Of a DNA stretch of 64,000 nucleotides, positions 2,420 to 53,962 are shown piece after piece. The position numbers were made by a program, and so were the translations under genes. Source of the stretch: a virus (lineage: Duplodnaviria > Heunggongvirae > Uroviricota > Caudoviricetes); IMG/VR virus record IMGVR_UViG_3300047560_002175, positions 1-64,000 of that record. One strand, given 5' to 3'. A model generated the notes under the pieces. The model ran no database searches. It was not told the DNA's origin and saw only the letters and a list, made by a program, of their open reading frames with translations. The stretch's first letter is position 1. The number at the start of each line of letters is the position of its first letter.

Positions 2420-2430
2420 CTACTAATTAT

Positions 2431-20030: not shown

Positions 20031-20458
20031 AGTTTTTCAACAGTTATACCACATTTTTCTAAAAACTCAAGTCCAGCAGTACTACGATAAGTTTCTGTAT
20101 AGAACACTTTAATAATGCCGGACTGATATATCCCTTTAGCACACTCTATACACGGAGCATGTGTAATAAACATAAAAGCACCTTTACCTGATTCAGTCGA
20201 ACTAGCTAATTTCATTAGCGCATTCATTTCTGCATGGATGACTTCTGGTTTGGTTTTAAGATATGAACCACCATCTTGGATAATATCCATTTCTACTTCG
20301 CAAACATTATTCCAACCGGTAGGTGTACCGTTGTAGCCAAGACTAATAATACGATCATCTTTAACTACAACCGCACCAACTTTAAGCTTAACTGCGGAAC
20401 TAAGTTCCGCAAATGTATAAGCCGTTTTCATAAAAGCTTGTTTAAACTTAGCTTTCAT
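20027..20458 (-). CDS. cd: dCMP (deoxycytidylate) deaminase
   Basis: HAEMNAL and PCIECAK zinc-binding motifs of the cytidine/dCMP deaminase fold. Confidence 0.8.
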   Translation of the reverse strand: MKAKFKQAFMKTAYTFAELSSAVKLKVGAVVVKDDRIISLGYNGTPTGWNNVCEVEMDIIQDGGSYLKTKPEVIHAEMNALMKLASSTESGKGAFMFITHAPCIECAKGIYQSGIIKVFYTETYRSTAGLEFLEKCGITVEKL

Positions 20459-21309
20459 TACTTAATGCCAATCATCGGTAATGAGCTGTTAGGAACCATA
20501 GTAGTAGGCAATTCACCGTTCCATTTTTCAATAGCATTAAGTTCTGCTACGCCTGGGTTGTTTTTAACAGCTTCACCTTTTAAGTGAATGGCTTTAGCTT
20601 CAGCTTCTGCTACTAATAACCTTGCATTAGCTTCACCTTCTGCCTGTGCAACCGCAATAGCAGCCTGTGCTTTAGCAGTTTCAACTTGGTTTTGTCTTGT
20701 AATTGCCTGTTGCGATGCATTAATCTTTTCATTTATTGCAGTAGTAACAGTGTCTGGTAATCTAATATCGCCGACCCAAGAAAGATGATCTAAAATAATA
20801 CCGTATTGTTCAATCTCACCACGAACACGCTTTTCAGCAGCTTTGATTAAATCACTTTTGCCTTCGCCGTAGACTGTTTCAATTGACTTAGTCGATGATT
20901 CAGTATTGATTGCATCGCGCACTAGGTTTCTTAAGTAAACATCTGTAATTTCAGTAATACCTTTACGATACTTTTGGAATAAAACTGGAATTTTATCCTC
21001 TTGTAGCGTATATGTGATACCAATATCAGCATTTACACTTAAACCTTCTTTAGTTTGGAAGGTAATTGATTCGTCTTCTGCACGTCCTTCGGTATGTGAT
21101 TTAGTCCAAGTGTAGTTCTGCATAAAGGTTGGAAACGTGTATAACTCTTCGTTTACACCAATCCAGTATCGTCCTGGTCCTAATTGTTCAGTATCAACAC
21201 CTTTGTCGCCACCAAGTAAATGAACTTTAACACCAACTGTACCTACTTCAACTTTTGAACAACCTACGAGTGCAGTGGCAATTGCAGCAACTAAAAGTAA
21301 TTTTTTCAT
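20458..21309 (-). CDS. SPFH/Band-7 (prohibitin/HflC-like) lipoprotein
   Basis: Lipoprotein signal MKKLLLVAAIATALVGCS. AEGEANARLLVAEAEAKA coiled region. C-terminal AIEKWNGELP typical of SPFH proteins. Confidence 0.75.
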   Translation of the reverse strand: MKKLLLVAAIATALVGCSKVEVGTVGVKVHLLGGDKGVDTEQLGPGRYWIGVNEELYTFPTFMQNYTWTKSHTEGRAEDESITFQTKEGLSVNADIGITYTLQEDKIPVLFQKYRKGITEITDVYLRNLVRDAINTESSTKSIETVYGEGKSDLIKAAEKRVRGEIEQYGIILDHLSWVGDIRLPDTVTTAINEKINASQQAITRQNQVETAKAQAAIAVAQAEGEANARLLVAEAEAKAIHLKGEAVKNNPGVAELNAIEKWNGELPTTMVPNSSLPMIGIK

Positions 21310-23344: not shown

Positions 23345-23854
23345 TTATCTTAAAAAATCATGCCAATCTAAATTATATTTGATGCTATCAATTTTATGCA
23401 CACCTAGCAAATATAAAACAAAACTTGAAACGCTTGAGCCTCTCCCAACTCCCCAGACAACATTATTTTCTAAACAAGTATCTATAAAGAATTTAAGCCA
23501 TTGAAGAAGGTGCATCATATTTCTATTCTTAAATTCAGTTAGTTCTTCGTGTACACGGGTAGTTTCAATAGTTGAGTTACATTTAGCTATGCAATAAGAT
23601 TCTACATCAAAATTATAGTAATAATCAGGCATAAACCATTCATTTTGATTTAACATGTCATATTCTTCAATTGACAATGAGTTTACAGATTCATCAAATT
23701 GATGAATTTCAATTTCTGATACGGTTGATAATTGTGAAATTTCGTAACATTTTTCGGTTACAATAGTAGTTAATGGGATTTGATGCCCTGCGTACAAGGC
23801 ATCAAATATGTCTTTTTTATTAAAAATTGGATTTGAAAATTTGTCTGTTCTCAT
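23345..23854 (-). CDS. Hypothetical protein
   Basis: 169-aa ORF. Confidence 0.4.
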   Translation of the reverse strand: MRTDKFSNPIFNKKDIFDALYAGHQIPLTTIVTEKCYEISQLSTVSEIEIHQFDESVNSLSIEEYDMLNQNEWFMPDYYYNFDVESYCIAKCNSTIETTRVHEELTEFKNRNMMHLLQWLKFFIDTCLENNVVWGVGRGSSVSSFVLYLLGVHKIDSIKYNLDWHDFLR

Positions 23855-24101: not shown

Positions 24102-24701
24102 TTATGGTTTTACATATTTTCCAAGATATCGCATAAACACTGTAACCCCGTGATCATTTGACCAGGCTTCTAATACAACGTAAGATTCTTTACTTACATG
24201 CAATGTAGTTGGGAAACTAATGTCTTTAATTACGTACCCGTTATTTTGTGTTGTGAACACAGTAACATCAACACCTGCTGCAATAGTAGGAACAGTAGTT
24301 AAATGAACACGCACTGATGCATATTGTCCTGTAGCAGGCCAATTAACAAATGCTAATGTAGTATCAGAGTTAATAGTTAATGTTAATTGTTGTGATATTC
24401 CTGAATCTAAGTTTACAGTTGCAACGTTTGATGCAATTGATCCAGTGTAGCTTGTACCGTATAATTTGTTAAAATTTCCATTTACAATTGAACTACCATT
24501 GATATCATTTTCAACTGGGTCTTCGTTGCTATCTAATGTACTTTTTAATACTGCTCGATTTTCAAATAATTGAAGTTCGATTTTTGCTTGATCTAAAGCT
24601 GTTTTGATTCTTAAGAAATTATCACGAAACCCTTGGCTATCGTTATCAACACCTGCGATTGGATAATTAGTAAGAATTGTGTTAGTTATAATACTGCTCA
24701 T
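24102..24701 (-). CDS. Probable virion structural protein (fibre/baseplate-associated)
   Basis: 199-aa ORF coupled (ATGA) to the downstream Ig-domain protein. Confidence 0.4.
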   Translation of the reverse strand: MSSIITNTILTNYPIAGVDNDSQGFRDNFLRIKTALDQAKIELQLFENRAVLKSTLDSNEDPVENDINGSSIVNGNFNKLYGTSYTGSIASNVATVNLDSGISQQLTLTINSDTTLAFVNWPATGQYASVRVHLTTVPTIAAGVDVTVFTTQNNGYVIKDISFPTTLHVSKESYVVLEAWSNDHGVTVFMRYLGKYVKP

Positions 24702-27070
24702 ATGTTGTTCCTGTTATTAGTGAATATAATGTATTTATCAGCATATTTGTTTGAAGATCGAATAATAATTCTATCTATCAAATAATCTAATAAATTAAAT
24801 TTAAAATTACTGTGTTTGATATTAAGTAAAACTTGATCTGCAGATCCAACTTTACAATAACACAATGGAACTGCTAAAGTATATCCAAGTTCTGTCCGTG
24901 TGTTTGGTTGAATTGATCTCATCCACAGGGGTAATAATTCATTGTCTGTCGTACTAATTAGACTTAAACTCTGTTGCCATCTTGTTACACTACTTGGATA
25001 ATACGTGTTGTTATTGACAATAGTATTTCGTGATAAATGATTTACTAATGAATCAATTGGATCGATCATGTGAATATAAATTACCTCATATACTGCTGTA
25101 TGTGTACCAGGTATCAATGCTACAGCTTTCTTTACTTCACCAAATCGAAATCTTTTATTTTTATAATTAGTCTGCATTTGATTAATATAATCTGATACAT
25201 CGGCTTCTTGTATACCTGCATAAATTAACATTGATAAATCTGTTTGCACACCAAATGCACGATCGTATGGACGATATATTAAATTTGGTTCAAAAATCGA
25301 TTGGTTTGTAATAAAGCCATCCCACAATATTCTATCATTAAGATCCATAAATGGTTTAACTACTACATTATCAAAGTTTGAGTGTGTAGGTGTTTTTATA
25401 GTTATTGAGAAGGTACGTTCAGTTGCGCTGTAATAAAACTGATCACGTGCTTCAACTGTAAATTTAAATTGCCGATCAATTGTAGTTTCACCGCCATCAT
25501 ATATTGTATCAGTGTCTAATCGATAATCAAATGTAGTCAATCCCTTACGACTAAATTGTTTATCAAATGTAGTAGTAGGTGATTGATCAAATGTAGTAAG
25601 CCCGTCATCCATCGCCGGAATTGAAATTACTGTTGTGAATTTAGTAATACCGTTAATGTTAAAGGTAGTTTCTCCATTATCAAAACTAATTAAAGTCGTC
25701 TTTACATCAAAATAGGTATCATCACTATCAAATCTTAAATTACTTGATAATAATGGAACTACTCCCATTATTTCACCGTCATATGACATAGTTAGCCCTG
25801 GCGGTAATGAACCAGCAACTACTGAATGAATTACTACAGCATCTTCAATTGTACTTGTTGCCTGTACACTAAACATCGATGGATAATCAGTTCGTATTTG
25901 TCCTAAATCGTTAGATCCAGCCCAAGTAATAACACTGTCTATTTCACCGATAAGTTTAACAGTAAAGGTTCTCGAAGAACTATTAGTTTCAGTTTTATTC
26001 TCATCTCCGTGGGTTGATGCTGTTACTGTAAATGAGTAGGTAGTTGTAATAGCAGGCTGGTATGGAACATAACCATATATTTCACCAGTGATAACATCAA
26101 ATGACAATCCAGTAGGTAATTTTGTAATATCATCAATTGAATAGTAAACTATACCAACGCTATAAACATCTAAAACTATAGTAACATAATTATTAGCTCG
26201 ATATGTTCCTAAGTCACTTGGAGTAATCCATACTGGAGCTTGTAGATATGTTACATCAGCTGTAAACAACCCAACATTTGAAATTAATTCGTCAGCATCT
26301 GCTCTAAAATAATCTTCGTTAACTACATATATTTCAAATTTACGTTTTGGAGTTAATATTCCATCTGTAACAGAAACAATAAATTCAAATTTACGATTAA
26401 TAGATTTAACTTTTCGTACAGCAAGATAATCGTACACTGCATAATCAAATGGAATAGTATCATAACCGTTTTGTTTTGGAGGAATAGCAAAGTCAAATGG
26501 GCCTACATCGTAATAACCGTTGTCATATGATCCAGATCCGCTTGCTGGTGTGATTGCAGTTACTTCGTTAACAACACCAACAATTCTACCATCAGGTGTT
26601 AGTGTAAGACCTGATGGTAATTCTCCATCACCTCGATTAATGAAAAAAGATATTTCTTGTCCTGCAGATAAATCGTAATCAATTGCATTGAGTTGATAAT
26701 TTACAACCGAATTATCAATTACAAATAATTGTTTTGCAGGACCAATATCAAGTAATCCAGCATTAGTTAGAATAATTGGAGCATCTGGCCCAACAACTGT
26801 TACTTCAAATGTTCTGTCAGCAATTAAATTATTGTATTTTGCACGAATACAAAAGTTATAGATTGTATCATCTGTTACTTCAACTGGTGCTCCGATTAGT
26901 CGATTTCCTTGTAATTTTAGGCCGCGAGGCAACGACCCAGTTATAATTGAATACGATACATTCAAATCGTCAGTTACTGGTAATTTTATATCAACATCAA
27001 TTCCCTCGGCGAGGGTTTCAAGGTTAATTTTATTTAAGGTGGAATTTTGTGTCCAAACATTAAGTGCCAT
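24698..27070 (-). CDS. Structural protein with about four putative-Ig (dystroglycan/cadherin-like) domains
   Basis: Repeated motifs ITGSLPRGLKLQGNRLIGAP, GELPSGLTLTPDGRIVGVV, AGSLPPGLTMSYDGEIMGVV. ATAAATA motif upstream. Confidence 0.5.
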   Translation of the reverse strand: MALNVWTQNSTLNKINLETLAEGIDVDIKLPVTDDLNVSYSIITGSLPRGLKLQGNRLIGAPVEVTDDTIYNFCIRAKYNNLIADRTFEVTVVGPDAPIILTNAGLLDIGPAKQLFVIDNSVVNYQLNAIDYDLSAGQEISFFINRGDGELPSGLTLTPDGRIVGVVNEVTAITPASGSGSYDNGYYDVGPFDFAIPPKQNGYDTIPFDYAVYDYLAVRKVKSINRKFEFIVSVTDGILTPKRKFEIYVVNEDYFRADADELISNVGLFTADVTYLQAPVWITPSDLGTYRANNYVTIVLDVYSVGIVYYSIDDITKLPTGLSFDVITGEIYGYVPYQPAITTTYSFTVTASTHGDENKTETNSSSRTFTVKLIGEIDSVITWAGSNDLGQIRTDYPSMFSVQATSTIEDAVVIHSVVAGSLPPGLTMSYDGEIMGVVPLLSSNLRFDSDDTYFDVKTTLISFDNGETTFNINGITKFTTVISIPAMDDGLTTFDQSPTTTFDKQFSRKGLTTFDYRLDTDTIYDGGETTIDRQFKFTVEARDQFYYSATERTFSITIKTPTHSNFDNVVVKPFMDLNDRILWDGFITNQSIFEPNLIYRPYDRAFGVQTDLSMLIYAGIQEADVSDYINQMQTNYKNKRFRFGEVKKAVALIPGTHTAVYEVIYIHMIDPIDSLVNHLSRNTIVNNNTYYPSSVTRWQQSLSLISTTDNELLPLWMRSIQPNTRTELGYTLAVPLCYCKVGSADQVLLNIKHSNFKFNLLDYLIDRIIIRSSNKYADKYIIFTNNRNNI

Positions 27071-27756: not shown

Positions 27757-28299
27757 ATGAAATGGCAAATAGATAAAGAGTTCCATTTTGAAATGGGGCA
27801 TAGAGTATGGGCACAAAAATTAGAACATGCTGAGTTAAGTATTACAACTGATTGTGCGTGTAAACATTTACACGGGCATAGTTATGCAATTAAAGTGTTT
27901 TTAGGATCTGATAGTTTAGATCAATCAGAAATGGTTACTGACTTTAAAAATTTAAACTTTATGAAACAATTTGTAGATGATGTATTAGATCATAAGTTTA
28001 TGATCGATGTTAATGATCCAAACTTCAAATTAATTACAGGTCAAGATTGGGAAAATAATCCAACAACAGATCATCCATTTGCAAACTTTATAAACCTTGG
28101 TAGTTATAACTGGGTTGGTTTATCAGATGATGAAAAATTACATCTTAATAGTTTTGTATTAGTAGATTTTGTACCAACTAGTGAAAATATTTGTAGATAT
28201 TTGTTTGAATATGCACAATCACGTATTGGTGATTTAGCAAAAGTTACTGCAGTTGAGCTGTGGGAAACAAAGAAAAGTCATTGTAGATATACAGGATAA
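27757..28299 (+). CDS. queD: 6-pyruvoyl-tetrahydropterin synthase / QueD-like (6-carboxy-tetrahydropterin synthase)
   Basis: CACKHLHGHSY, the C-x5-HGH signature of the PTPS/QueD family. Length 180 aa. Confidence 0.75.
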   Translation: MKWQIDKEFHFEMGHRVWAQKLEHAELSITTDCACKHLHGHSYAIKVFLGSDSLDQSEMVTDFKNLNFMKQFVDDVLDHKFMIDVNDPNFKLITGQDWENNPTTDHPFANFINLGSYNWVGLSDDEKLHLNSFVLVDFVPTSENICRYLFEYAQSRIGDLAKVTAVELWETKKSHCRYTG

Positions 28300-29084: not shown

Positions 29085-32000
29085 ATGGCAAAAAAAATAA
29101 TTGAAATTGGTGTTCAAGGGAATGACGGTACTGGCGACAGTATACGTGAAGCGTTTAGTAAAGTTAATGATAACTTTAGTGAAATTTATGCAGTATTTAA
29201 GAGTGAGGGTAAAATTAATTTTAGTGATCTATCTGATGGATGTACTTACATCAGTGATCAGCTTATCACCGCAAGTCACGATGGAACTACGTTAATTGCA
29301 AGAGATTTAGTACCAGGGAATGGTATATTCATATCTGCAACATCGTCGGCTATTACAATTGAAGCACAAGCAGCTTCATTATCAAATGATTTAAAACCAG
29401 AGATATCAGCACCATTTAATGCTAATAAATTTGCAATTGGTCGTTTGTCGGATCCAAGCGAAGACCTTGTAGATCTTTTTAACTTAGTATACGATATACC
29501 AACTACATTAGATGAGTTACCAGTAACTGTGGGATATGCAAATAGACGATATGCACAGTTAACTGAATCAGGTGTTATTGGTGTTTTAGAAAATGGGGTT
29601 ATAGTTCCAAGTCCTATACAAACAAGAGCAGAACCTACAACTCCTGATATTACAAACCCATTGTACGATCCAACATTAACTGGTAATTACTTGTCAACTG
29701 AAGTATTACCACGTAAGGACGTAGTATACCGTGGTGGTGATAAGATGACCGGTGCGTTAATCTTAAATGATCACCCAGGAGCAATGGCTGGAACAGTTGG
29801 TGCAATGTTTGATTCTGATCTACAGGCAGCAACTGCATTTTATGTAGATAACAAAACATTCACAAGTAATGTTAATTTATATGTTTCTGCGGCATCAGGT
29901 GACGATTTGCAACTTAGAACACCTGCAGGGAAAGAAGGTAGATATTGGAATTATGCGTTTAAATCTATCGGTGCTGCATTGTTACATGCTGAGTCATTGA
30001 TTAATTTAGCAAGTCAAGAACCTGGTCCTTACAAACAACGTATTTCTTATACACTTGGAGCAGATCAAACATTTTCAACAGTTCAACGTGTAAGATTAAC
30101 CGGTGGTGAATCTACAACACCTGGCTATGTTGCTGCATTTAACTTATTACAAGCTAATCGGTCATTTATTCAATCAGAAACAATTTCATATATTAATAAA
30201 AAGTATGTGAATAAATTTTCTTATAATAAAACACTATTTTCAAACAGAATAGAGTTTTTAATTAAAGCAGTATGTGATGATTTATTGTTAGGTGCTACTG
30301 ATCCAGATACATCAGTACCTGGAACAAATTATAGATCAATTCGGTCTGCTGTAAAATATTTACATGATGATCCATATTTAGAGCAATCGATTCAATGGTT
30401 ATCTGCTATTGAGTTTATTAGAAATCAAATTATTGAGTTTACATACGATGGACCTGCATTGCAAGATTATACTACTCAGTTAGTTACTGCATTATGCTAT
30501 GATTTGATTTTTTCTTCAAACTATCAAAGTATTCAAGCTGGTATTGCATTTAAAAATGCCGGAACTAAAGTAAGTGCAGAACAATTAGGTTCAATGCTTA
30601 CTATTAAACCTATTAACATTTTATCTGTAACAGTTAACGGTGGTGTTGTAACACTTAATTTCTTAACTCAATCATCGGCATTCTTATTAAACAGTGAAAT
30701 ATTAATTGATGCAGTGTTTACAAACGTTGACGATGAAACAAATGAAATCATAATTAAACCGAGTGAAACTGTTAACAATGTTACTACTATTACTTCTGTT
30801 ACTATTGATTCTGCATCAACTGTTTCATCTGTTAGTTTTAGAAAAGGTGGATATCCATTTATTAACGATGGCACATACACTGTAACAGGGTCGTTTGATC
30901 GTAAGAACTTAATTAATCTGTTGTTATTAACACCAGGTATTACAACTTATCCAAGTTCTGCAGTTGATATTACTGCTAATGCTACAATAGTGCGTGATAT
31001 AGTGTTAACTGGGACTATCCCAGAACCGGTTATGCCTACACCAAACAATCCACCAGCAGGGTATAATGTTCTTGGTCATGTTCATGCAAAATCGTTGTTA
31101 TTAGATAACATTTCATTTATTCAAGCTGAAGTAGTTGCTTATCTTAGTTCAGAATTCCCAGATGTATCATATAATCGAGAATTATGTTTGCGAGATGTGA
31201 AATATATCATTTGGAGTTTAGCATATGATTTAACATATGGCGGTAATAGTCAAAGTGTATATGCTGGTAAAAAATATTGGAATAATTCAACCAACTTTAT
31301 CATTGCATCTGAAAAAACCGCATGTGTAAGCGTAATTAACTATATCAATACATTGGCTCAAGCAGTCATTATAAACAGTGCGACTACTACGACCTATCAA
31401 CAATCAGTTAGACAGTACAGAAATGATACATTAACTAATGGTAATGTAGCATCAGCATCAATTGCAAGCAATGTTGCTACGATTGCAGCAATTGTGACCA
31501 GTTTAAGTAATGTTCCTGCTATTATAAATCCAAGTGTTACAACTGGTTTAGCAGAAATGCAAACTATTTTTGATAGAATTACTGCAGATATTGGAAATTA
31601 CACAGATGACACAAAATCTACATCGACAATATGGTATTTAGATAGTTATTTCCCAGTAATTAAGACATTAACTGATAAAGATAAGATTAATAACTTGTTT
31701 GATCAGATAATATCTATTGTATCCGGTGGTGTTTATCCGTCAGTAGTACCAGTTTATCCAATTGTAACTATTCCAACACCAGTTAACGTAAATGTTACTG
31801 ATGCATGGATTGTTCAAGCTACCGGATTGCTTGATCAAACAGCAATTAATACCATTGCACAATCTACAAATTCTTATATTGCGTCAGTTTATACAACAAT
31901 TACCTATAATTCAACTACTTTACAAAATGATATTAAAGATTTGTTGTTTGCAGCAATTTACGATTTAAAATATGGTGGTACATTGGCTAGTTTTGATGTT

Positions 32001-35000
32001 GCAACTACATTTACATTGTTAGGATCTAATGTTAATACTCAAAAAACAATAGTTCAAGCTGCAATTGATCATGCATGGTCTCTTACAAATACTTTATTAG
32101 TTGGAAATATAACTGGAGATACTTCAAATCATACAGTTAACAAATTGCGTGAAAAATTCACATTTGCTTCTTCATATTTTAGCAATAATCCGCCAATACA
32201 AGGCGACGATATTACAGTATCATTATTCTCAACTACTACATATGACAATGCTACTAAATTAAGAACCTTAATTTTAAATAGTTTATCTACTATTTCAAAC
32301 GATACCTTAACTTACATTGATTCAGTGTTTAAAGGTGGGTTTACTTATGATGAATCTTTATGTTATAGAGATTTAGGTTTGATTATTGATGCAATGTCAA
32401 TTGATTTAATCACTGGTGGTACATATCAATCTATAAATGCAGGTAAAAGTTTTTATAAAAACTCAAGTGCAAGAGCAGTTTCAATTGGTACACAATATAC
32501 ACAGTCATTTGATGGTATAATGTTTGCTCAATCAGTAGCATTGCAAGTATTAAATAAACAACTTAAGAATAGATACCAATTATTACCGCAAATTACACAA
32601 TTTGCAACAACAAATCCATCTAATTTAACATATATTAGCACAGGCGAATTACCAACTGATAGTATCGGTGTTACAGGCGATCGTTCATTGCCAGTTTCTC
32701 AAAATGCAATTGACACATTTGTTGCAAACATGTTAAGATTAACTGATATTATACAGTACGGTATAAGCGTTGCAGCAACACCGTCGTTTGGTTCAGGTAT
32801 TTGGAATTTATTAATTGACAATGGCGGGAGAGGCTATGTAGATCAAGGTTCTCCGTCAAATAACGACTTATTCCCAGCTAAAGTAATTGTAGGTGTTGGT
32901 ACTTCATCTATTGCTGCATCCAATGCGTATGGAAGTATTGTTACATATACATACGGCAGTGATATTTCCGGTGCACCTTTAGTGTTAGGCGATGTTGATA
33001 CACTTCAAGTACGGTTAACAAAGCCTGGATTCTTTAAATCTGCTTACACTTTAGTAGATCTTAACTGGTCTTTTGTTGGAACTACTGTTACAGTTACTAA
33101 AGCTAACCATACAATTACACAAGGTACTCGTATAATTGTAAACTTTGCCCAATTCTTTGGGTCTGGATCTAATGCCCCAATTGGAACTTGGATTGTATCG
33201 GCAGTAACAACTAACACATTTTCATTTGTAACAAGTTTAGCACCAATTGGAACTAGTACATTAATGACTGTAACGGTTCAAGTAGGTGAACAAATTGAAT
33301 TTGGTGAAACTGTTCGTGATTTGCAACTAACAATGTTCATTGAAAGTGGCATTTATTACGAAGATTATCCATTGAGAGTGTCATCAAACATATCTATTAA
33401 GGGTGACGAGTTCCGTAGAACTATAATTAGACCAAAAGATCGTATTAGTCAAAGCCCATGGCGTAAGATTTTCTTCTATCGTGATGCAATTGTTGATGCT
33501 TTAGAGGTAGGTTTAATTGATTATACCGGAACTAACTATGCTCCGAGCGGAATTACAGCGTCTTTAGACGGTGTAACTAATAAAATTGTGGTAACATTGA
33601 GCGGTAATTTCCAAGCACCATTGAGTTGGGTTGGTAAAGTGTTTGCTGATACTAATACTACAAACGGAAATGCAAAACGCGGTAAAGCTGTAGTTGACTC
33701 TGTTAGTGGTAATACTATAAATTGTACAGTAATTTACCCATTTAGCGTAAGTGGATTATATGCTGCCGGTAGTTGGAAGCTATTTGGTACTATAAATTAC
33801 GGTCGTCACTACTTAACTAACCCATTAGATGTAACAAGTACGGCTAAAAACAACAAAGATATCGACGTTTTATTATGTAATGAAGGTACACGTATTGTTG
33901 GTGTAACATTCCAAGGTCATGGCGGGTTTGCTATGGTACTTGATCCAGAAGGAAACATCAAAACTAAGTCACCGTATATTCAAGAATGCGCAAGTTTCAC
34001 ACAAAGTAACAATTATAAGAGATTTGCAGGTGGACAATACATTGACGGATTTGCAGGAAGACTATACGGTAACATCATAGGTGTTTCTAATGACGGTATT
34101 ACTGTAACTGTACAAGGTGAAACTAATAGTGGTTTAGATATTAGACCTCCACAACCACCATGTTCGTTCTATGTACGTGGAAAACGTTATCAAATTGATG
34201 ATATTGTAAGTTTTGATGCAACTACTGCAACTGTAGTATTAACATTGGATAAAACTACACCGTATTTACATACAACATCTGGTGTTTTAACATACGACGA
34301 TGTTAAAGCAAAACGTGATATCGGTTATGTTTTGGATGCAATTGCAAGCGATGCTGCATTAGGTACAACATATCGTTCAGTACATGCTGGTCGTTCTTTC
34401 TTAAAAATATATTCTAGTCGTTTAGTGGGAGATTTACAAGATCTTACTATTGCAGGTATTAATAAAGCATTAGAATTGTCAAATACAACACTTAGCGGTA
34501 GTACATATTCAAGTATTAGAACTCAATATGCCACTAATATTGCTATTATTACTTCTATGATTTCAAATGGAGTTAATGCAACACCAACTATTGTATGGTC
34601 TACTAGTTCAACAGCTGATGATAACTTAGCTCGTAATATTATTCAAAACAATAAAGCATTTATTAAGTCAGAAATTAGTGCATATATCGCACAATACTTT
34701 ACTTTAGGTGATTACCCAAGATACAATGTATTAACAAGTGAACGAGATGTTGGTTATGTACTTGACGCTATGACATATGACATGTTCTATGGTGGTGATA
34801 GTCAAACAAAAGATAGTGCAGAAGCATTCTTTTACAATAATACATCGTATATACCTGATGAAAATGTAATTTGTTCAGCTGCGTATACCAGATTAAAAGC
34901 TGTATTAGCTGCTGTAGTTGCGGGATCACCAGTTGTTGTAAGTTCAGGTAACAGTGTTTCACAAATACTAACAAATCCGCCAGCATCATCAGCCGGTTAT

Positions 35001-38000
35001 GTTACTAAATTAAACACACTGAGCGACATTGTTATTGATTATATTGCAGACGGTAGTTATAGTTCACCAAGAACAAGTGCTCGTACATATCCATTGTTAC
35101 CAGTAGGTACAACTGGAACTACAGCTTATAACTTATTCTTTGATACCGGAACAAATCCAGCTACTAAAACAACTGCTGAAACTACTATTGAAACTTCTGT
35201 ATCAACTTTCTTAAAAAATGGTGCAAACTTAAGAATTAATATTGAAGCTGGCGGTAACCGTTCAATGTTAGGTAACGATTTTGCTATGTTTAATGATTTA
35301 GCATATGGTATTTTAGCTACTAATGGTGCATTTACTGAACAAGTATGTACATTCACATATTATGCGCATACCGGGCTTTGGGCAAACAATGGTAGTAACT
35401 TACGTGGTGTAGGATGTTCAAATACATTTGGTAACTACGGTATGAGAGCATCCGGTTATGACGTTACTGAATTACCAGATAGTACAAATCTTGCTAATCA
35501 TATGATTCAAACTGCTCGAGTATATAAGCAAGGCATAGTTGCAAACGAAATGATTCCAACCGCAACTGTTCCGGCTATTGCAGTGTGGATCATTGGGTAT
35601 GATTATATTCCAACTAATGGTTCAATTATGGAAATTAATCATTCTGTTAATAGTGGAACTATCAATAGTTACACTGTAACATCGGCAGAATATACTACTA
35701 TACAATTTGCAAATCAAACTGTTCTTAAATTAAATTTAAACACAACTGACACAGGTTCTGGATCAGGTTTATCAAAAGAATTGTACGATGGACAAATGGT
35801 TTCTATTAGATCACTTAAAAATGTTAAGTTTAATAATGTTGATAATGTTAAACCAACAAGACCGTCAACTGCGTTACAATATGTTGATAATTTAAATGAT
35901 GTATATCGTATCATTGCTTACAATTTAACAGAATCAACTGGTGATATGTTAGGTGATAACATTGCAATATTACAAAGTGATAACTCATTTGCATATTACA
36001 ATTTTACAACTGATCCTAAATCAATAATAATAGGTGATCCTGATTCAAGTATCTATACTACTGTAGCATTAAACGGAGGCGCAACTACTAGTACATCATT
36101 AACTGTTACAAGTGCAACAGGTATTTTACAAGGTCACATAATTAGTGGTGTTGGCTTTACTGGACAGATAATTACTAACATTAACGGTAATGTTCTTACA
36201 TTAAGTTCAGCACCAAATGCCACACCATATGGCACTGTGTATTTTTCATTCAAAACACAAGGTTCTAAAGTAGGTGATACTAAAATTGCAGTTGATCAAG
36301 TTTCTCAATTAAGAATAATAGATCAAATTAACAAAGGCACTTATATTACAGCATGGAATGGTAGATTACATCGTGTATTGAGATATGTAACTCCAACATT
36401 TGCAGTGTCTAAAACTTATGCATCTTACAACAGTGGTACTTCTACAATGGTAGTAACTGGTTCAGCAGGATCGATTACTGCTGGTATGTTAGTTATTAAA
36501 CGAAATGCAACAACCGAAGCACTTGAATTTACCGGTACTGTAGTGTCGGCAACTGTAGTAGGTCTTACAACAGAAGTTGTGATATCAACTCCAAATCAAG
36601 TAGTAACTCCGTTAACTCAAGGCCCTGTAACATTTGGTGTAACTGCAAACGGTTATATTGAACTATCACCAAATGCATTTATAAACAATGCTGCTAATGG
36701 TGTTTCTGTTAATGCAATGACTTATCTAAGTTCAGACTTCCAAGTTGATAGTATTACTGCTAAAGTAGTAACTTTTGATATACCATTTAGTAAAGATAAT
36801 TTATTACCAAAAGTTGATAGTTATCTAACATTTGCAGGCAACTCAAATGCAAGTTATAATGGCGAATATCAAATAACCAGGGTAATAAATCAAACATTAG
36901 TAACATTGTCAACTATTACTGATTTTGTAGTAGGTATGGTTGTAACTTCACAAGTAACTACACAATTTATTACAAACTCAGGCGGTGTTTCAACATTTAC
37001 ATCAACTGCAAATCATAACATGGTATTAAATGATCCAGTAACAGTAAATGTTTCAAGTAATATGAATGGTCTTGTTCAAAGCACTACGTATTATGTTAAA
37101 ACAATTCCAACTTCAACATCGTTTACATTAAGTGCGACATCAGGCGGTACTGCATTAGGTAATTTTGGTATTGTTGTATCAGCTGGGGTTGTGATTATTT
37201 CGATAGCAACTAATTTAGGTGTATCAACGTTTACAACAAACACATCACATGGTTTAGTTTCTGGTAATACATTTGCACCAAATATCAGTACAAACAGTTT
37301 TGTTGCTGGAACTACCTATTATGTTAAAGATGTAACATCAAATACGTTTACATTAAGTGCAACATCAGGTGGTTTAGCGTTAGGAAACTTTGGAACTACT
37401 AATGTAATTTCATCGTCAGTATCATTTAAAACTCCACAGACTGCTATTATACCCGGCGGTAGTGCAATTATTCAATCTGTTTCATCTGATCCATTAGTTA
37501 AAACAATTGTAATCAGTCCTGCAGCATGGGTTCCTGCAAACTCGCCAATTAGAGCATCGTTAGCTGCAAGTGTAATGAGTATTTCAATTACATCAGGTGG
37601 TTCAGGATATACATCTGCACCATCTTTAACAATTGAAGGTGGTTCTCCAACTCAACGAGCAACTGCAACTTGTACAATTGTTAACGGTGAGATTAATGAA
37701 GTTCGTGTAATTATTAAAGGTAGTGGATATGTTTCTATACCGTCAGTTACAGTTACACCTGCGGTTGGTAATATTCCAACTTCAACTGCTGTATTATCTG
37801 TAAACTTATCAACTGCTGTATTGCGTGATGCTACTTCAACAACTGGTGTGTCTACAATACAGATGTCTGCATTGTATCCAACAGATCCAGGTACATTTGG
37901 AACTGTTACATCGATTACAGTATCTGCTGAAACTACAACTACTACTACATATAATTCAGTTAGTGGTTATTCAATGGCTTATACAGTATCATCAGGATCT

Positions 38001-41000
38001 ACAAAACCTGCAAATGATACTTGGTGCAAGGTTGAAGGTAATAGTAATGCGTTGTATAATGGATTTTTCCAAGTTATTTCAACTGCAAGCACTACAATTA
38101 CATTATTTTCTCCATTAAATCCAGGAATTTATGGAACTGGTACTACAACTATTACTTCTACTCCTACAAACGGAACAAGTACAAGTTTAGGTATTAGTAA
38201 ACCATTTAGTACTAAAGATGGATACACATTTAACATTGGTTATGCCGCAAATACATTTGCTCAAGTAACAACACGCATTAGTACATGTCGTGCTACTGGA
38301 CATGACTTCTGTGATATTGGGACAGGTGGATATAGTACAACAAATATTCCATATTCAATCTATGGTGAGCCTGCATTAAGTCGTCAAGTTTCACATGAAA
38401 CATTAGATGAAAGTGTAGGACGTTGTTTCTATGTATCAACTAACCAAGATGGTATATTTAGAGTAGGTAAATTCTTCTCAGTAGACCAAGGTACAGGTGT
38501 TGTAACACTTAGTTCAAAGACTGCATTGTCAAATATTGAAGCATTTGGATTTAGTGGCGGCGGTGCTGTTGTAAATGAATTTTCAACAGACTCAACATTA
38601 ACTGATAACTCCTCTAATAAAGTACCAGTTGAAAGTGCAGTACGTGGATATATTGATAAACGGTTAGGCATTGATCATGGTGGTTCTCCATTACCGTTCT
38701 TGTCAATTATTGGACCAGGATTTGTTCCATTAAATGGTTCAGCAAAAATGACAGGAGATTTGGTATTAGGTGGAAATGGTATTACAGGTGTTAGATCTCC
38801 AATTTCATCGTCTGATGTAGTAACTAAAGGTTATTTAGAGCAATCATTATTAGCACACAATTCATTAAATGAACTCGATGATGTAACATTAACTACTCCA
38901 AGTAACGGACAATCAATATTTTATGATTCAGTATCAGCTAAATGGAGAAATGCTGTATTCTCAGGAGATGTTTCAGTTTTAGTTCGCCCATCGACTACAC
39001 TTGACAATGTTATTGTTAGTAGAGGAACAGCATCTGGTATTGATAGTGAGTTTACATGTGATGCAAATGTTGGATTGTTTGTTGGACAACAAGTTACATT
39101 CTCTGGGACATATTCTGGTTCTGGGTTAATAAATGGTTATACTAATCCATCTACATATTTTATTATTGCAACTAATGGAACTACAACTTTCCAACTTTCA
39201 ACTGTAAAAGGTGGTGTTGCTGTTACTGCTACTGCAGGTACATTAGGTTTAACTGTAACGGTTCCGTTGATGTCAATTGCAATAGGTAGTGGAAGAATTG
39301 TTAATAGTATGATTAGTTCTGCTGCTAAAATTGATCAAAGTAAATTATCTTTGAATTTAGCAGGTACATCAACTACTACAGGCGGAACATTAGGTGTAGC
39401 AAGTTTCAGTAGTTATCAATTTAGTGTTGATGCTAACGGTTGGGTAACATTAGCTAATTCATCATCAGAAACAACCGGAACAACATTAACTAAATTGCAG
39501 CATGTTCCAGCTAAAACTGTATTGAGTAACTTAACCGATGGTTCTACAAATGTTGTTGCAAATTCTGCATCTGAGGTAGTTAGAGTTGGTGAAGGTATAC
39601 AACTTGGGTCGTTTACATCAGTTGGTGTTATGACAGTTACTTCAGTTTTAAATTCAAAACCAACTGGATTTGCTGTCGTTGGTATTACAACAACAGGTGA
39701 AGGGTCAAAAATTGTTAAAACTGGTACATCAGGTGGTATTGATGTTGCTGAATTATTAATTGATGGTTATTCTGTTCTTGATGTTGATGCAACACCTGTA
39801 GGTGGAGCTGCTTCAGCAATTGTACAGTTTAAGACACCAGGTAACTACACATTCTTAACTGCAACAGGTAACAACACAGTTAATAACCCAAGTGTTATTA
39901 GTGTTGCCGGAACATTAGATGTTACTGGTACTAATAGTTCAATAAAATGTTCATCTTTATCAACCGGTAGCACAGGTACAGAAGGTACATTAACTGGAGC
40001 TTGGAAATTAGCATCAGGTAGTTCGTTAGACTTTTCAGCAGGTTTTGTAACATCTTCGTCTGCAGGGTTAACATCGAGTGATTTAAATACAATAACAAGA
40101 CCAGCATTGATATTAGATTTTGCAAATAGTAAAACACTTGATCCTCGTATTTCGTTTACTCGTAATTCAATTGGAACATATACTAATGCACAAGGTTTAT
40201 TAGTAACTGCAAGCGTTCATCAAGCAAGATTTGATTTTAATCCAACAACTGGTGTATCAAAAGGTTTGTTAATTGAAGAACAAAGAACTAATGTGTTATG
40301 TGGATCTGCATCATTTGCAATATCAGGCGGAACTAACCAATGGGTTGATAGCAGTATTTCAAGAGGGGTAGGATCAACTTCACCTGCAGGAACAGCTACT
40401 ATTACATTTACTGCATCGGCAGGAAATGCAACAATTATAAGTAACGCAGTTGCATCGGGTACTTCATACAGAACTTTTTCAATATGGTTAAAAAGAGAAG
40501 CAGGTACAGGTGATATTCAATATACATTAAATAACGGTGCTACTTGGACTACACAGGCGATTACAAGTACATTAACACGTTATAGTTGGTCTGCTTCAGT
40601 TACTAATGCAAGTGTTGGTATTAGAATTGTAACATCAGGTAATTCAATTACAATGTGGGGAGCTCAGTTAGAAGATGGAGCATTTGCAACATCTTACATT
40701 CCGACTACAACTGCTGCAGTTATAAGAAGAGCAGATGTTGCAATCGTAAATGGAACTAATTTTTCAAGATGGTATAGACAAGCCGAAGGAACATTTGTAT
40801 TAACACATGCTGCATTAGGCATTGATGCTGTTGCAAATTCATATAATGGTGTTAAAGTTCAATCTACTGATTTAACTGCGTCTATGGAAATACGATGCGG
40901 GTCAACTGGTACAGGTTTATTGTATGATGTAAAAGGTTTAACTAATACTGGTACTACTCAGTTTGATTTTATTGGATATTCAACATTAACAGTAAATACT

Positions 41001-41210
41001 CCAGTTATGCAAGCATTTGGTTATAAGGCAAATGATTGTGCATATAGTGTAAATGGTGATGTTGCAGAAGAAGATACTGTAGCAACTATTCCAACTACAA
41101 TTGCTGAAATGGTAATCGGAGGCGCAGGCGCACAATATATCGAAAGAATTGCGTATTATCCACGTAGGTTAACTAACTTGGAAATTCGTTCACTCACATC
41201 AACTCTATAA
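29085..41210 (+). CDS. Giant (4041 aa) tail-fibre-like structural protein with repeated internal modules and a C-terminal LamG/ConA-like lectin-type domain
   Basis: N-terminal GNDGTGDSIREAFSKVNDNFSEIY (phage fibre N-terminal motif). At least 7 copies of a C.RD.gyv.DA...Dl.yGG..QS..AG..F module. Three copies of a YYVK...FTLSATSGG.ALGNFG module. Two GSGY..P..T repeats. C-terminal WGAQLEDGAFATSYIPT. Confidence 0.7.
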   Translation: MAKKIIEIGVQGNDGTGDSIREAFSKVNDNFSEIYAVFKSEGKINFSDLSDGCTYISDQLITASHDGTTLIARDLVPGNGIFISATSSAITIEAQAASLSNDLKPEISAPFNANKFAIGRLSDPSEDLVDLFNLVYDIPTTLDELPVTVGYANRRYAQLTESGVIGVLENGVIVPSPIQTRAEPTTPDITNPLYDPTLTGNYLSTEVLPRKDVVYRGGDKMTGALILNDHPGAMAGTVGAMFDSDLQAATAFYVDNKTFTSNVNLYVSAASGDDLQLRTPAGKEGRYWNYAFKSIGAALLHAESLINLASQEPGPYKQRISYTLGADQTFSTVQRVRLTGGESTTPGYVAAFNLLQANRSFIQSETISYINKKYVNKFSYNKTLFSNRIEFLIKAVCDDLLLGATDPDTSVPGTNYRSIRSAVKYLHDDPYLEQSIQWLSAIEFIRNQIIEFTYDGPALQDYTTQLVTALCYDLIFSSNYQSIQAGIAFKNAGTKVSAEQLGSMLTIKPINILSVTVNGGVVTLNFLTQSSAFLLNSEILIDAVFTNVDDETNEIIIKPSETVNNVTTITSVTIDSASTVSSVSFRKGGYPFINDGTYTVTGSFDRKNLINLLLLTPGITTYPSSAVDITANATIVRDIVLTGTIPEPVMPTPNNPPAGYNVLGHVHAKSLLLDNISFIQAEVVAYLSSEFPDVSYNRELCLRDVKYIIWSLAYDLTYGGNSQSVYAGKKYWNNSTNFIIASEKTACVSVINYINTLAQAVIINSATTTTYQQSVRQYRNDTLTNGNVASASIASNVATIAAIVTSLSNVPAIINPSVTTGLAEMQTIFDRITADIGNYTDDTKSTSTIWYLDSYFPVIKTLTDKDKINNLFDQIISIVSGGVYPSVVPVYPIVTIPTPVNVNVTDAWIVQATGLLDQTAINTIAQSTNSYIASVYTTITYNSTTLQNDIKDLLFAAIYDLKYGGTLASFDVATTFTLLGSNVNTQKTIVQAAIDHAWSLTNTLLVGNITGDTSNHTVNKLREKFTFASSYFSNNPPIQGDDITVSLFSTTTYDNATKLRTLILNSLSTISNDTLTYIDSVFKGGFTYDESLCYRDLGLIIDAMSIDLITGGTYQSINAGKSFYKNSSARAVSIGTQYTQSFDGIMFAQSVALQVLNKQLKNRYQLLPQITQFATTNPSNLTYISTGELPTDSIGVTGDRSLPVSQNAIDTFVANMLRLTDIIQYGISVAATPSFGSGIWNLLIDNGGRGYVDQGSPSNNDLFPAKVIVGVGTSSIAASNAYGSIVTYTYGSDISGAPLVLGDVDTLQVRLTKPGFFKSAYTLVDLNWSFVGTTVTVTKANHTITQGTRIIVNFAQFFGSGSNAPIGTWIVSAVTTNTFSFVTSLAPIGTSTLMTVTVQVGEQIEFGETVRDLQLTMFIESGIYYEDYPLRVSSNISIKGDEFRRTIIRPKDRISQSPWRKIFFYRDAIVDALEVGLIDYTGTNYAPSGITASLDGVTNKIVVTLSGNFQAPLSWVGKVFADTNTTNGNAKRGKAVVDSVSGNTINCTVIYPFSVSGLYAAGSWKLFGTINYGRHYLTNPLDVTSTAKNNKDIDVLLCNEGTRIVGVTFQGHGGFAMVLDPEGNIKTKSPYIQECASFTQSNNYKRFAGGQYIDGFAGRLYGNIIGVSNDGITVTVQGETNSGLDIRPPQPPCSFYVRGKRYQIDDIVSFDATTATVVLTLDKTTPYLHTTSGVLTYDDVKAKRDIGYVLDAIASDAALGTTYRSVHAGRSFLKIYSSRLVGDLQDLTIAGINKALELSNTTLSGSTYSSIRTQYATNIAIITSMISNGVNATPTIVWSTSSTADDNLARNIIQNNKAFIKSEISAYIAQYFTLGDYPRYNVLTSERDVGYVLDAMTYDMFYGGDSQTKDSAEAFFYNNTSYIPDENVICSAAYTRLKAVLAAVVAGSPVVVSSGNSVSQILTNPPASSAGYVTKLNTLSDIVIDYIADGSYSSPRTSARTYPLLPVGTTGTTAYNLFFDTGTNPATKTTAETTIETSVSTFLKNGANLRINIEAGGNRSMLGNDFAMFNDLAYGILATNGAFTEQVCTFTYYAHTGLWANNGSNLRGVGCSNTFGNYGMRASGYDVTELPDSTNLANHMIQTARVYKQGIVANEMIPTATVPAIAVWIIGYDYIPTNGSIMEINHSVNSGTINSYTVTSAEYTTIQFANQTVLKLNLNTTDTGSGSGLSKELYDGQMVSIRSLKNVKFNNVDNVKPTRPSTALQYVDNLNDVYRIIAYNLTESTGDMLGDNIAILQSDNSFAYYNFTTDPKSIIIGDPDSSIYTTVALNGGATTSTSLTVTSATGILQGHIISGVGFTGQIITNINGNVLTLSSAPNATPYGTVYFSFKTQGSKVGDTKIAVDQVSQLRIIDQINKGTYITAWNGRLHRVLRYVTPTFAVSKTYASYNSGTSTMVVTGSAGSITAGMLVIKRNATTEALEFTGTVVSATVVGLTTEVVISTPNQVVTPLTQGPVTFGVTANGYIELSPNAFINNAANGVSVNAMTYLSSDFQVDSITAKVVTFDIPFSKDNLLPKVDSYLTFAGNSNASYNGEYQITRVINQTLVTLSTITDFVVGMVVTSQVTTQFITNSGGVSTFTSTANHNMVLNDPVTVNVSSNMNGLVQSTTYYVKTIPTSTSFTLSATSGGTALGNFGIVVSAGVVIISIATNLGVSTFTTNTSHGLVSGNTFAPNISTNSFVAGTTYYVKDVTSNTFTLSATSGGLALGNFGTTNVISSSVSFKTPQTAIIPGGSAIIQSVSSDPLVKTIVISPAAWVPANSPIRASLAASVMSISITSGGSGYTSAPSLTIEGGSPTQRATATCTIVNGEINEVRVIIKGSGYVSIPSVTVTPAVGNIPTSTAVLSVNLSTAVLRDATSTTGVSTIQMSALYPTDPGTFGTVTSITVSAETTTTTTYNSVSGYSMAYTVSSGSTKPANDTWCKVEGNSNALYNGFFQVISTASTTITLFSPLNPGIYGTGTTTITSTPTNGTSTSLGISKPFSTKDGYTFNIGYAANTFAQVTTRISTCRATGHDFCDIGTGGYSTTNIPYSIYGEPALSRQVSHETLDESVGRCFYVSTNQDGIFRVGKFFSVDQGTGVVTLSSKTALSNIEAFGFSGGGAVVNEFSTDSTLTDNSSNKVPVESAVRGYIDKRLGIDHGGSPLPFLSIIGPGFVPLNGSAKMTGDLVLGGNGITGVRSPISSSDVVTKGYLEQSLLAHNSLNELDDVTLTTPSNGQSIFYDSVSAKWRNAVFSGDVSVLVRPSTTLDNVIVSRGTASGIDSEFTCDANVGLFVGQQVTFSGTYSGSGLINGYTNPSTYFIIATNGTTTFQLSTVKGGVAVTATAGTLGLTVTVPLMSIAIGSGRIVNSMISSAAKIDQSKLSLNLAGTSTTTGGTLGVASFSSYQFSVDANGWVTLANSSSETTGTTLTKLQHVPAKTVLSNLTDGSTNVVANSASEVVRVGEGIQLGSFTSVGVMTVTSVLNSKPTGFAVVGITTTGEGSKIVKTGTSGGIDVAELLIDGYSVLDVDATPVGGAASAIVQFKTPGNYTFLTATGNNTVNNPSVISVAGTLDVTGTNSSIKCSSLSTGSTGTEGTLTGAWKLASGSSLDFSAGFVTSSSAGLTSSDLNTITRPALILDFANSKTLDPRISFTRNSIGTYTNAQGLLVTASVHQARFDFNPTTGVSKGLLIEEQRTNVLCGSASFAISGGTNQWVDSSISRGVGSTSPAGTATITFTASAGNATIISNAVASGTSYRTFSIWLKREAGTGDIQYTLNNGATWTTQAITSTLTRYSWSASVTNASVGIRIVTSGNSITMWGAQLEDGAFATSYIPTTTAAVIRRADVAIVNGTNFSRWYRQAEGTFVLTHAALGIDAVANSYNGVKVQSTDLTASMEIRCGSTGTGLLYDVKGLTNTGTTQFDFIGYSTLTVNTPVMQAFGYKANDCAYSVNGDVAEEDTVATIPTTIAEMVIGGAGAQYIERIAYYPRRLTNLEIRSLTSTL

Positions 41211-53712: not shown

Positions 53713-53962
53713 TTGCCATAATAATTTCTTTATTAGGTCCGCAGGAATAAAATTCTACTTCGTAAAGATCTCTCGCGTGACCTAAGTATGTACACCCAAG
53801 AGGTTTTGAAATTGCTCGTCTTTGATCAGTGTATTTTACAGTATTAAATGTTAATCCTCCAACTACTGCTAACCCAACCATTACAACTGTTACTAATGCG
53901 GATTGAAATATCAGTCCGCCTAATACTCCTAAGAAAATTATTAGTATCATTGTTAAAATCAT
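53678..53962 (-). CDS. Small two-TM membrane protein
   Basis: 94-aa ORF overlapping both neighbours. Confidence 0.35.
   Translation of the reverse strand: MILTMILIIFLGVLGGLIFQSALVTVVMVGLAVVGGLTFNTVKYTDQRRAISKPLGCTYLGHARDLYEVEFYSCGPNKEIIMASAGQQPKYKGE

Follow-up and report, generated by a model that had tools for sequence, protein, structure and literature searches.

What kind of protein is encoded by a single phage gene of 12.1 kb, and what is the module that recurs along it? The question is raised by a stretch of 64,000 nucleotides (nt) from a virus of the class Caudoviricetes (IMG/VR record IMGVR_UViG_3300047560_002175, positions 1 to 64,000; hereafter 'the window'), in which one open reading frame (ORF) specifies a giant protein composed of several families of repeats. 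The initial annotation read the product as a fibre, but could put no name to its most frequent module, which it took for a possible new building block of the fibre shaft. Here we identify the module as a divergent globin domain of phycobiliprotein type (Pfam PF00502), and consider the protein, with a probability of about 0.8, to be a giant host-recognition fibre of a Methylococcales jumbo phage (∼372 kb) with seven phycobiliprotein-homologous shaft domains. Large phages commonly have giant fibres, and as a fibre this one is a new and very divergent member of a familiar kind. What is new is the identity of the repeat: the fibre is built with domains of a family otherwise known from light harvesting and sensing alone.

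The gene itself was the first issue, given that a single uninterrupted frame of this length had been claimed. Translation revealed no internal stop in 4041 codons. At the G+C content of the window (∼34%) stops are expected at ∼7% of random codons, and the open frame is thus not a chance product (a rough estimate puts the chance at ∼e^-300). A Shine-Dalgarno-like AAGGGG lies ∼10 nt 5′ of the ATG, and 10 nt separate the stop codon from the start of the following gene. In JGI/IMG an identical protein, labelled 'hypothetical protein', is encoded by a 372,173-bp contig; the window covers 64 kb of this 372-kb genome. A scan of IMG/VR with residues 1380–2120 returned 49 related loci of 39–73% identity, the longest contig among them measuring 356 kb. 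A single open frame encodes the protein in 48 of these (3,269–5,762 amino acids (aa) where complete), and exactly seven modules are present in 31. The sole split copy (L055, 808-6233; IMGVR_UViG_3300002220_003522) lies in two overlapping frames, probably through a frameshift or an assembly error. In a representative library of 1.84 billion proteins, ∼15 are collinear with the giant protein from residue 1 to ∼3650 at 35–51% identity, and in all of them collinearity stops before the last ∼390 residues. The single frame in orthologues, together with collinearity up to the last ∼390 residues, indicates that the gene is real and conserved and that its tip is exchangeable.

It might still be argued that misassembly produced a chimeric ORF, or that sequencing error fused several genes: the sequence is of metagenomic origin and one related locus is split. 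Nonetheless, 48 independent loci from different samples hold the one frame, with a collinear order of domains at 39–73% identity, and the argument is effectively refuted; we leave it next to no weight. The data support a virion fibre or baseplate-attached protein that is the product of one genuine giant gene. Both its distal homology and its place at the head of a closely packed cluster of three fibre genes are those of a tail fibre. Against the phage collection, megablast of the gene gave no match, and tblastn matches cover 4–36% of the protein query.

Identity of the repeated module

Iterated searches with a hidden Markov model (HMM) delimit seven modules in the giant protein (Table 1), in agreement with the 'at least seven' copies of ∼150 aa first counted; the unit is ∼145 aa once a sixth helix is included. 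The motif string originally given for the module has no literal match in the protein because it is a consensus. When run over all six frames of the window, the module HMM found no copy outside the giant gene.

When PDB sequences were searched with a profile of 22 copies, a single weak match emerged (E 2.9), to residues 80–104 of R-phycocyanin alpha. The module stretch kCkRDvGliidAlvyDltyGGn aligns without gaps with this segment, which contains the bilin-attachment site Cys84. The family consensus matches the Pfam profile PF00502 ('Phycobilisome protein') with 22.8 bits against a gathering score of 22.2, consensus positions 19–125 aligning with positions 49–153 of the 155 in the profile. One relative with 22 modules (P0015) reaches 30.4 bits; the 750-aa protein P0004 stays under the gathering score at 15.6 bits. 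An hhalign comparison of 128 diverse copies with C-phycocyanin alpha (a query identical to PDB 1ha7_A) returned a probability of 89.9%. Here the C-x-R-D motif of the module falls gap-free on Cys84-x-Arg86-Asp87, within an alignment that extends over residues 30–147. A search for homologues of alpha-phycocyanin recovered near-identical sequences alone and left the profile–profile comparison no sharper.

Structure prediction points in the same direction. AlphaFold models of single modules, a check proposed at the outset, were obtained with pLDDT (predicted local distance difference test) scores of 84 and 76; they are models of monomers from shallow alignments of 22 sequences. The models show a globin-like, all-helical fold of phycobiliprotein type with six helices, and phycobiliproteins dominate the Foldseek ranking, accounting for ∼43 of the top 50 matches at template-modelling scores of 0.55–0.65. 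The module therefore does have a name, contrary to the initial annotation: it matches the PF00502 globin-like superfamily. Nor is it a known repeat of fibres, a finding that would have undone the claim of novelty: phycobiliproteins are well known, but not as a fibre family. No report of a phycobiliprotein-like, globin-like or PF00502 domain in a structural protein of phages came to light in literature searches.

The superfamily takes in phycocyanin, phycoerythrin, allophycocyanin and the ApcE bilin domain, with the BBAG globins and photoglobins (photocobilins) as relatives outside photosynthesis. In phycobiliproteins and in BBAG-1/3 globins the Cys is the point of covalent attachment and the Arg and Asp hydrogen-bond the bilin; BBAG-1/3 globins bearing the motif attach bilins by themselves, and photoglobins use CXQD (PMC10151467). 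The module carries its C-x-R-D on the equivalent of helix E and shares with phycobiliproteins the downstream G-x(12)-GG and A-G motifs. There are also differences. Phycobiliproteins are soluble subunits of 160–180 aa, whereas the modules lie in tandem or dispersed within virion proteins of 2,000–6,400 aa. The modules are without evident alpha/beta pairing or X-Y hairpin – the Pfam match begins at profile position 49, as if the N-terminal hairpin had not been conserved – and the loop from the GG to the AG motif is shorter. They have, in addition, invariant residues of their own (Asp55, Tyr71 and Gln117), and they are found in phages, including one of a methanotroph.

Conservation and distribution of the module family

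An exhaustive HMMER search of representative proteins found the module in 1,493 of them, 604 at E≤1e-30; a word-indexed profile search alone gave two matches. Family proteins are mostly 1,000–6,400 aa long with up to 36 modules each, and those looked up are unnamed or called 'hypothetical protein'. Conservation was measured in 1,731 copies from 165 proteins, comprising the 150 best-scoring representatives and the word-indexed matches, a sample biased towards canonical copies: Cys41 is conserved in 92%, Arg43 in 92%, Asp44 in 96%, Asp55 in 99%, Tyr71 in 96% and Gln117 in 95%. The C-x-R-D triad is intact in 1,538 of 1,723 copies (89%). Its loss is coupled: Arg and Asp are both gone from 54 of the 133 copies that have no Cys, as against 1 of 1,590 copies that have it.

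A different pattern is seen among orthologues of the giant protein. The motif of module 5 is CxRD in 29 of the 31 orthologues with seven modules (one of the remaining two has CxQD, the other YxRD). That of module 3 is CxRD in 14 and SxRD in eight, and the motifs of the other modules drift. With module 5 conserved and the others drifting, one module per chain is specifically selected for the triad, and the others appear to be structural.

Among cultured phages the module belongs to cyanophages. A tblastn search of 50,697 phage records with the family consensus matched 321, every one a cyanophage (258 Synechococcus, 52 'Cyanophage', 10 Prochlorococcus and one marine SAG virus), and a module from P-HM2 matched 357, again all cyanophages; 40–60 of these 321–357 matches were listed individually. 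Prochlorococcus-named records with modules are P-HM1, P-HM2, MED4-213, Syn1 and four others. Overall the module occurs in about three-quarters of cultured Synechococcus myovirus records, and it is absent from the 250 kb of P-SSM2. The PHROG families that contain it (phrog_4527, 5342, 3442, 18802 and 701) are giant cyanophage families only, annotated as 'short tail fiber', 'tail fiber', 'gp7' and 'virion structural protein', with the module unrecognised.

Three giant proteins of T4-like cyanophages illustrate the range. In P-HM2 the 'baseplate wedge initiator' gp7 (4,454 aa) contains two modules whose triads are both intact; the S-PM2 'short tail fiber' (3,779 aa) has four, three intact; and the giant 'short tail fiber' of S-RIM32 (4,021 aa) has five, four intact. 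These proteins share with the giant fibre the module, the GHDF domain (Table 1) and the family of the tip, and they too are giant single ORFs within fibre or baseplate clusters. However, overall identity is very low, the N-terminus and the order of domains are unlike, and nearly all copies have an intact C-x-R-D, whereas two of seven do in the giant fibre, whose host is a methanotroph and whose phage backbone is PA5oct-like. A further comparison is provided by fibres of 750 aa that consist of Mtd_N, a beta-rich region and two modules (P0004, P0006 and P0007; phrog_17885 and phrog_5342). They have C-x-R-D modules, the flanking SPY(V/I)Q(N/E)C and GNYG regions of the giant fibre, and a C-terminal 'G.G.N...P' domain that resembles its residues 3060–3140. 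They differ in being short, in their N-terminal motif (PF18454), and in the position of the modules, which follow the beta-rich region; modules 6 and 7 of the giant fibre are inserted within it.

Two observations on family members stand apart. Three metagenomic proteins, P0012 (5,984 aa), P0013 (4,799 aa) and P0014 (6,382 aa), consist largely of 31–36 tandem modules. In the S-PM2 record, RefSeq places 16 tRNA features inside the uninterrupted 3,779-codon coding sequence of the 'short tail fiber' (NC_006820.1 168556-173383; L137 19485-24312), whose own locus tag (S-PM2t009) is in tRNA style; either the coordinates or the annotation are apparently wrong.

The C-x-R-D pocket and the bilin question

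How might such a fibre work? The N-terminus would plug a trimer into the periphery of the baseplate in the manner of T4 gp9/gp10. The helical modules and the beta-rich segments interleaved with them would form a long beaded shaft, and the exchangeable tip would bind polysaccharide on the host surface. Five of the seven modules, having lost the Cys or the whole triad, would act as structural spacers, and selection would have kept the C-x-R-D pocket in module 5 and, less strictly, in module 3. Further fibre components would come from the two genes that follow. By homology with phycobiliproteins and BBAG globins, this pocket most likely accommodates a ligand, for which a linear tetrapyrrole is the first candidate.

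Several points weigh against this account. The triad is intact in modules 3 and 5 alone, the other five having no Cys. The window protein has no match to PF00502, either whole or in 500-aa pieces: singly, its modules are too divergent to reach the Pfam threshold. The Foldseek E-values (0.6–4) are weak and not significant, and the gp9/gp10 match spans just 39 residues. For residues 1385–1715, where a beta-helix was sought, a 14-sequence profile found nothing relevant in the PDB (best E 1.7) and Pfam gave no match. No heme oxygenase, bilin reductase or lyase was present in the ∼35 of 63 window ORFs that were scanned and, to our knowledge, the methanotroph host has no phycobilins of its own. Finally, the C-x-R-D motif could be conserved for folding or for contacts between chains, and not for a ligand.

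This last point can be taken further. We give slightly less than even odds to modules that are purely structural: a fold captured once and reused as a rigid helical spacer, with no copy pigment-bound, those of cyanophages included, and with C-x-R-D, Asp55 and Tyr71 conserved merely for stability of the fold or packing of three chains. The five Cys-less modules do persist in orthologues, and their positions there are fixed; all 217 orthologous modules have Asp55, with or without an intact triad, which looks like a constraint at the level of the fold; and a conserved extended segment with Gln117 after helix 5 might fill the cleft. No pigmented virion was found reported in the literature searched, and the modules occur in 357 phage records whereas cpeT, which encodes a T-type lyase homologue, occurs in just 66. 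Yet for a spacer it is odd that an extracellular repeat should conserve a single Cys in 92% of ∼1,700 copies. The joint loss of Cys, Arg and Asp is what is expected of one functional site, the triad is selectively kept in module 5 specifically, and the same three residues contact bilin in the homologous family (PMC10151467). A pocket that binds something other than bilin (a host glycan, a metal or haem), or a Cys that stabilises or anchors the fibre by an inter-chain disulfide or other reactive bond, is improbable in our judgement. It would fit the invariant Asp55, Tyr71 and Gln117, which lie outside the classical phycobiliprotein set, and the persistence of the motif in a phage of a non-phototroph. 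A thioester linking Cys41 to Gln117 was also considered and set aside. But no conserved His is present, as haem would need; the closest neighbours in structure and sequence are the bilin-binding branch; and the CxQD of one module-5 orthologue is the form used by photoglobins.

There remains the possibility, which we hold tentatively and regard as unlikely, that the intact modules are true biliproteins: they would carry a covalent linear tetrapyrrole, and the fibre or baseplate would be light-responsive or dependent on pigment. The bilin would come from a heme oxygenase and bilin reductase of host or phage, perhaps attached by the phage CpeT; in the methanotroph phage module 5, with or without module 3, would alone be loaded. 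Homology with the motif in the register of Cys84/Arg86/Asp87, the coupled conservation of the triad, the restriction of the module to cyanophages among the phage records and the self-attachment of bilins by BBAG-1/3 globins are all in keeping with this. So is the distribution of cpeT: every CpeT-bearing species that could be cross-checked also has modules, the Prochlorococcus-named P-HM1, P-HM2, MED4-213 and Syn1 among them. In S-PM2 (L137, NC_006820.1 163952-177267) and S-RIM32 (L139, NC_031235.1 18245-32632) cpeT and the giant module gene are co-oriented, with cpeT 1.5–1.8 kb to the 5′ side, and in at least eight other species (S-CAM1/3/4, S-WAM2, S-RIM44, Sf-CH1a and ACG-2014e/j) a module match occurs 1.7–6 kb 3′ of cpeT. 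In P-HM2, however, where the slot after gp5 likewise contains cpeT, there is no module within 12 kb. Physical linkage was downgraded on this ground: adjacency is a lead, and may be inherited synteny.

Behaviour of the phages adds a further lead. P-HM1, P-HM2 and S-PM2 adsorb in the light only, by a mechanism that is unknown and independent of photosynthesis, and P-SSM2 adsorbs in the dark (PMC6628666); the three light-only adsorbers have modules and P-SSM2 does not, although the comparison comprises four phages. Moreover, the pmoC-phage CB_2 has active HemO, PcyA and AlaS and makes phycocyanobilin, about the reason for which its authors 'can only speculate' (PMC11480375, PMC7674155); a pigment with no known purpose would find one here. 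Set against this, P-SSM2 has ho and pebS without a module, and phage bilin genes thus do not require modules; the window ORFs scanned offer no bilin gene. Most phycobiliproteins, too, need dedicated lyases. As a statement about phage tail and baseplate proteins in general – that they carry genuine biliprotein domains whose intact modules are chromophorylated by bilins of host or phage, possibly via a CpeT-type lyase – the proposal is doubtful.

The light-harvesting role of phycobiliproteins in cyanobacteria and red algae is textbook knowledge, and work on BBAGs and photoglobins is actively tracing how the family arose outside photosynthesis. To that story the virion proteins add an unexpected lineage, in the form of a large and so far unannotated branch of the superfamily that retains the triad. 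Chromophorylated modules, though hardly the likely outcome, would be categorically new: a photoreceptor or pigment-dependent switch built into the virion, which would account for the light-dependent adsorption seen in such cyanophages as S-PM2 and P-HM1/2. It would also explain why phages, pmoC-phages and others of heterotrophs and methanotrophs included, carry genes for heme oxygenase, bilin reductase and CpeT. Even if colourless, the modules are a new and widespread helical building block of giant phage fibres. They would then be a clear example of viral structure recruiting the fold of a host antenna protein, with later spread to phages whose hosts are unrelated.

The interval from cpeT to the fibre gene in S-PM2 and S-RIM32 contains a 2OG-Fe(II) oxygenase, along with tRNAs or small ORFs. 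Although P-SSM2 has no module, its heme oxygenase gene (NC_006883.2 213709-214410; L007 13709-14410) lies directly 5′ of the tail-fibre/tail-spike cluster PSSM2_293 to PSSM2_301.

Ends of the fibre, its other segments and neighbouring genes

Table 1. Features of the giant fibre gene and of selected neighbouring genes, in window coordinates
Feature	Residues	Position (nt)	Strand	Details
Giant fibre gene	1–4041	29085..41210	+	One ORF, 4041 aa plus stop codon
T4 gp9/gp10-type N-terminal motif	3–41	29091..29207	+	Pfam PF07880 T4_gp9_10_N, E 4e-6, 27.5 bits (cut-off 25)
Module 1	344–452	30114..30440	+	HMM E 1.7e-26; degenerate, FSNR replaces CxRD
Module 2, partial	433–531	30381..30677	+	HMM E 2.2e-19, profile positions 22–101; degenerate, LQDY
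Module 3	661–806 (HMM match 661–782)	31065..31502	+	Intact C-L-R-D, residues 701–704, nt 31185-31196
Module 4	905–1023	31797..32153	+	HMM E 3.6e-27; degenerate, LQND
Module 5	1050–1173	32232..32603	+	HMM E 9e-36; intact C-Y-R-D, residues 1093–1096, nt 32361-32372
Conserved beta-rich region	1385–1715	33237..34229	+	'ESGIYYEDYP...SIKGD' and 'SPYIQEC' motifs; 56–82% identical in orthologues
Module 6	1717–1821	34233..34547	+	HMM E 3.7e-25; AKRD, Arg-Asp present, Cys gone
Module 7	1842–1963	34608..34973	+	SERD, Arg-Asp present, Cys gone
Post-module region	∼1985–2110	35037..35414	+	Common to cyanophage/pelagiphage tail-fibre-like proteins
Two tandem YYVK...FTLSATSGG repeats	2617–2770	36933..37394	+	Self-BLAST 50.6% identity, E 1.7e-14
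GSGY..P..T pair	∼2825–2900	37557..37784	+	GSGY at residues 2839 and 2879
'GHDF.DIGTGG' domain	∼3035–3203	38187..38693	+	Common to cyanophage tail-fibre proteins
Third, divergent YYVK-type repeat	3315–3402	39027..39290	+	Self-BLAST 30.7% identity, E 0.001
Variable distal tip	3655–4041	40047..41207	+	Matches to phrog_5939, 6tb9 and cyanophage 'tail protein'
Second fibre-cluster gene	683 aa	41221..43272	+	T4 gp37-like distal long-tail-fibre PHROG matches; Peptidase_S74 chaperone at residues 585–647
Third fibre-cluster gene	1788 aa	43276..48642	+	fn3 at residues 60–149, E 5e-9; no PHROG match
Bacterial-type pmoC/amoC, complete		55405-56175	-	Pfam AmoC, E 2e-121; NF041641, 398.6 bits

The conserved phage-fibre motif noted initially at the N-terminus is borne out by a Pfam match above the cut-off (Table 1), which emerged only after the protein was split into 500-aa pieces; the whole 4041-aa sequence has no Pfam match. 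The motif region is 54–67% identical among orthologues, and is presumed to be the end for baseplate attachment and trimerisation. This is the extent of the likeness to T4 gp9 and gp10, from which the attachment role is taken: past the first ∼40 residues nothing matches, no other gp9/gp10 domain being found by Pfam and no gp9 or gp10 chain by the PDB search. With the rest of gp9/gp10 unmatched, the giant protein shares the attachment motif only and is not filed as a gp10 orthologue. The T4 proteins are also far shorter (gp9 ∼290 aa, gp10 ∼600 aa).

At the other end, residues 3819–4039 match phrog_5939 ('tail protein') with an E-value of 8.6e-58, and the tip is 30–34% identical by tblastn to the 'tail protein' of S-CAM4 and ACG-2014j; it is common to just five of ∼60 orthologues. 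The C-terminal motif WGAQLEDGAFATSYIPT, which falls within the phrog_5939 match, pairs with WGAQLEAGAAVSSVIPT of the RcGTA head spike fibre Rcc01080 (PDB 6tb9, E 4.6e-6). The C-terminal ∼240 residues of the two proteins align, including a WGAQLE.GA..S.IPT motif, although Rcc01080 is a head fibre of 325 aa attached via an N-terminal Leu-Gly star. The RcGTA head fibre binds particles to capsular polysaccharide, and residues 2–10 alone were resolved experimentally (PMC7296036). A glycan-binding tip is plausible in view of this capsule-binding homologue, and on sequence grounds the tip is presumed to be the receptor (glycan) binding domain; about its fold the 6tb9 entry, with so little resolved, tells nothing. 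The description of the tip as a ConA/LamG-like receptor-binding end thus holds in part: the motif is there and the homologue binds capsule, but residues 3601–4041 match no lectin family in Pfam at E≤1, and a ConA/LamG fold, though possible, is unsupported.

Between the two ends lie segments shared with other fibres. Residues 1385–1715 resemble the stretch that precedes the modules in the 750-aa proteins P0004 and P0007, and are possibly the start of a pectate-lyase-like beta-helix, judging by their motifs alone. The post-module region resembles P0004 residues ∼200–280, and residues 2046–2153 are 31–34% identical (tblastn) to tail fibre genes of S-SSM7 and Pelagibacter phage Mosig. The two regions may form one beta-rich domain interrupted by modules 6 and 7. 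By tblastn the GHDF domain is 39–44% identical to tail fibre genes of S-CAM3, P-SSM2, P-SSM5 and S-SSM7. Of the smaller repeats described initially, the GSGY..P..T pair was recovered; the three YYVK/FTLSATSGG copies come down to two clear ones in tandem (residues 2617–2695 and 2695–2770) and a third that is weak.

The choice of host rests on pmoC. The PmoC of the window is 84–92% identical to that of Methylobacter, Methylomonas, Methylovulum and other Methylococcales (metagenome-assembled genomes and isolates), and has no match in the phage collection. Since the window carries this gene, a Methylococcales methanotroph is taken to be the host; a thaumarchaeal host was rejected on the same identity and on the bacterial type of the AmoC. 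The window belongs to a pmoC-carrying large phage of the kind described earlier (PMC7674155), and not to a cyanophage. Pseudomonas phage PA5oct has a clamp loader 54% identical to the one encoded in the window. A large-myovirus identity is plausible. In one locus related by its giant fibre gene (L011, IMGVR_UViG_3300020198_000887) pmoC-like fragments of 82% and 61% identity, seemingly in two separate ORFs, occur at 936-1594, beginning ∼6 kb 5′ of that gene; fragmented phage pmoC genes are mentioned by Chen et al. (PMC7674155).

A T4-type late promoter (TATAAATA) was considered and rejected: six sites occur against 11.8 expected, none of them before the giant gene. Just upstream of the fibre cluster, at 24698-27070 (-), a 790-aa protein contains a He_PIG putative immunoglobulin domain (E 3.8e-18) and may be a further surface or virion protein. 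The window also encodes a proteostasis set, comprising a ClpA/B-like AAA+ ATPase at 11647-13926 (-) (phrog_4871, E 1e-245), a full DnaJ at 13986-14837 (-) and ClpP at 56477-57058 (-). Auxiliary genes specify a Bax1-I family membrane protein (53008-53712, -), an SPFH/Band-7 protein (20458-21309, -), a UvdE UV-damage endonuclease (53959-54987, -), PhoH (19058-19789, +) and a QueD-like 6-pyruvoyl-tetrahydropterin synthase (27757-28299, +). A 169-aa ORF at 23345-23854 (-) matches just the NTPase-domain part of DNA polymerase III alpha (E 3.7e-11), and may be a fragment or part of a split polymerase gene.

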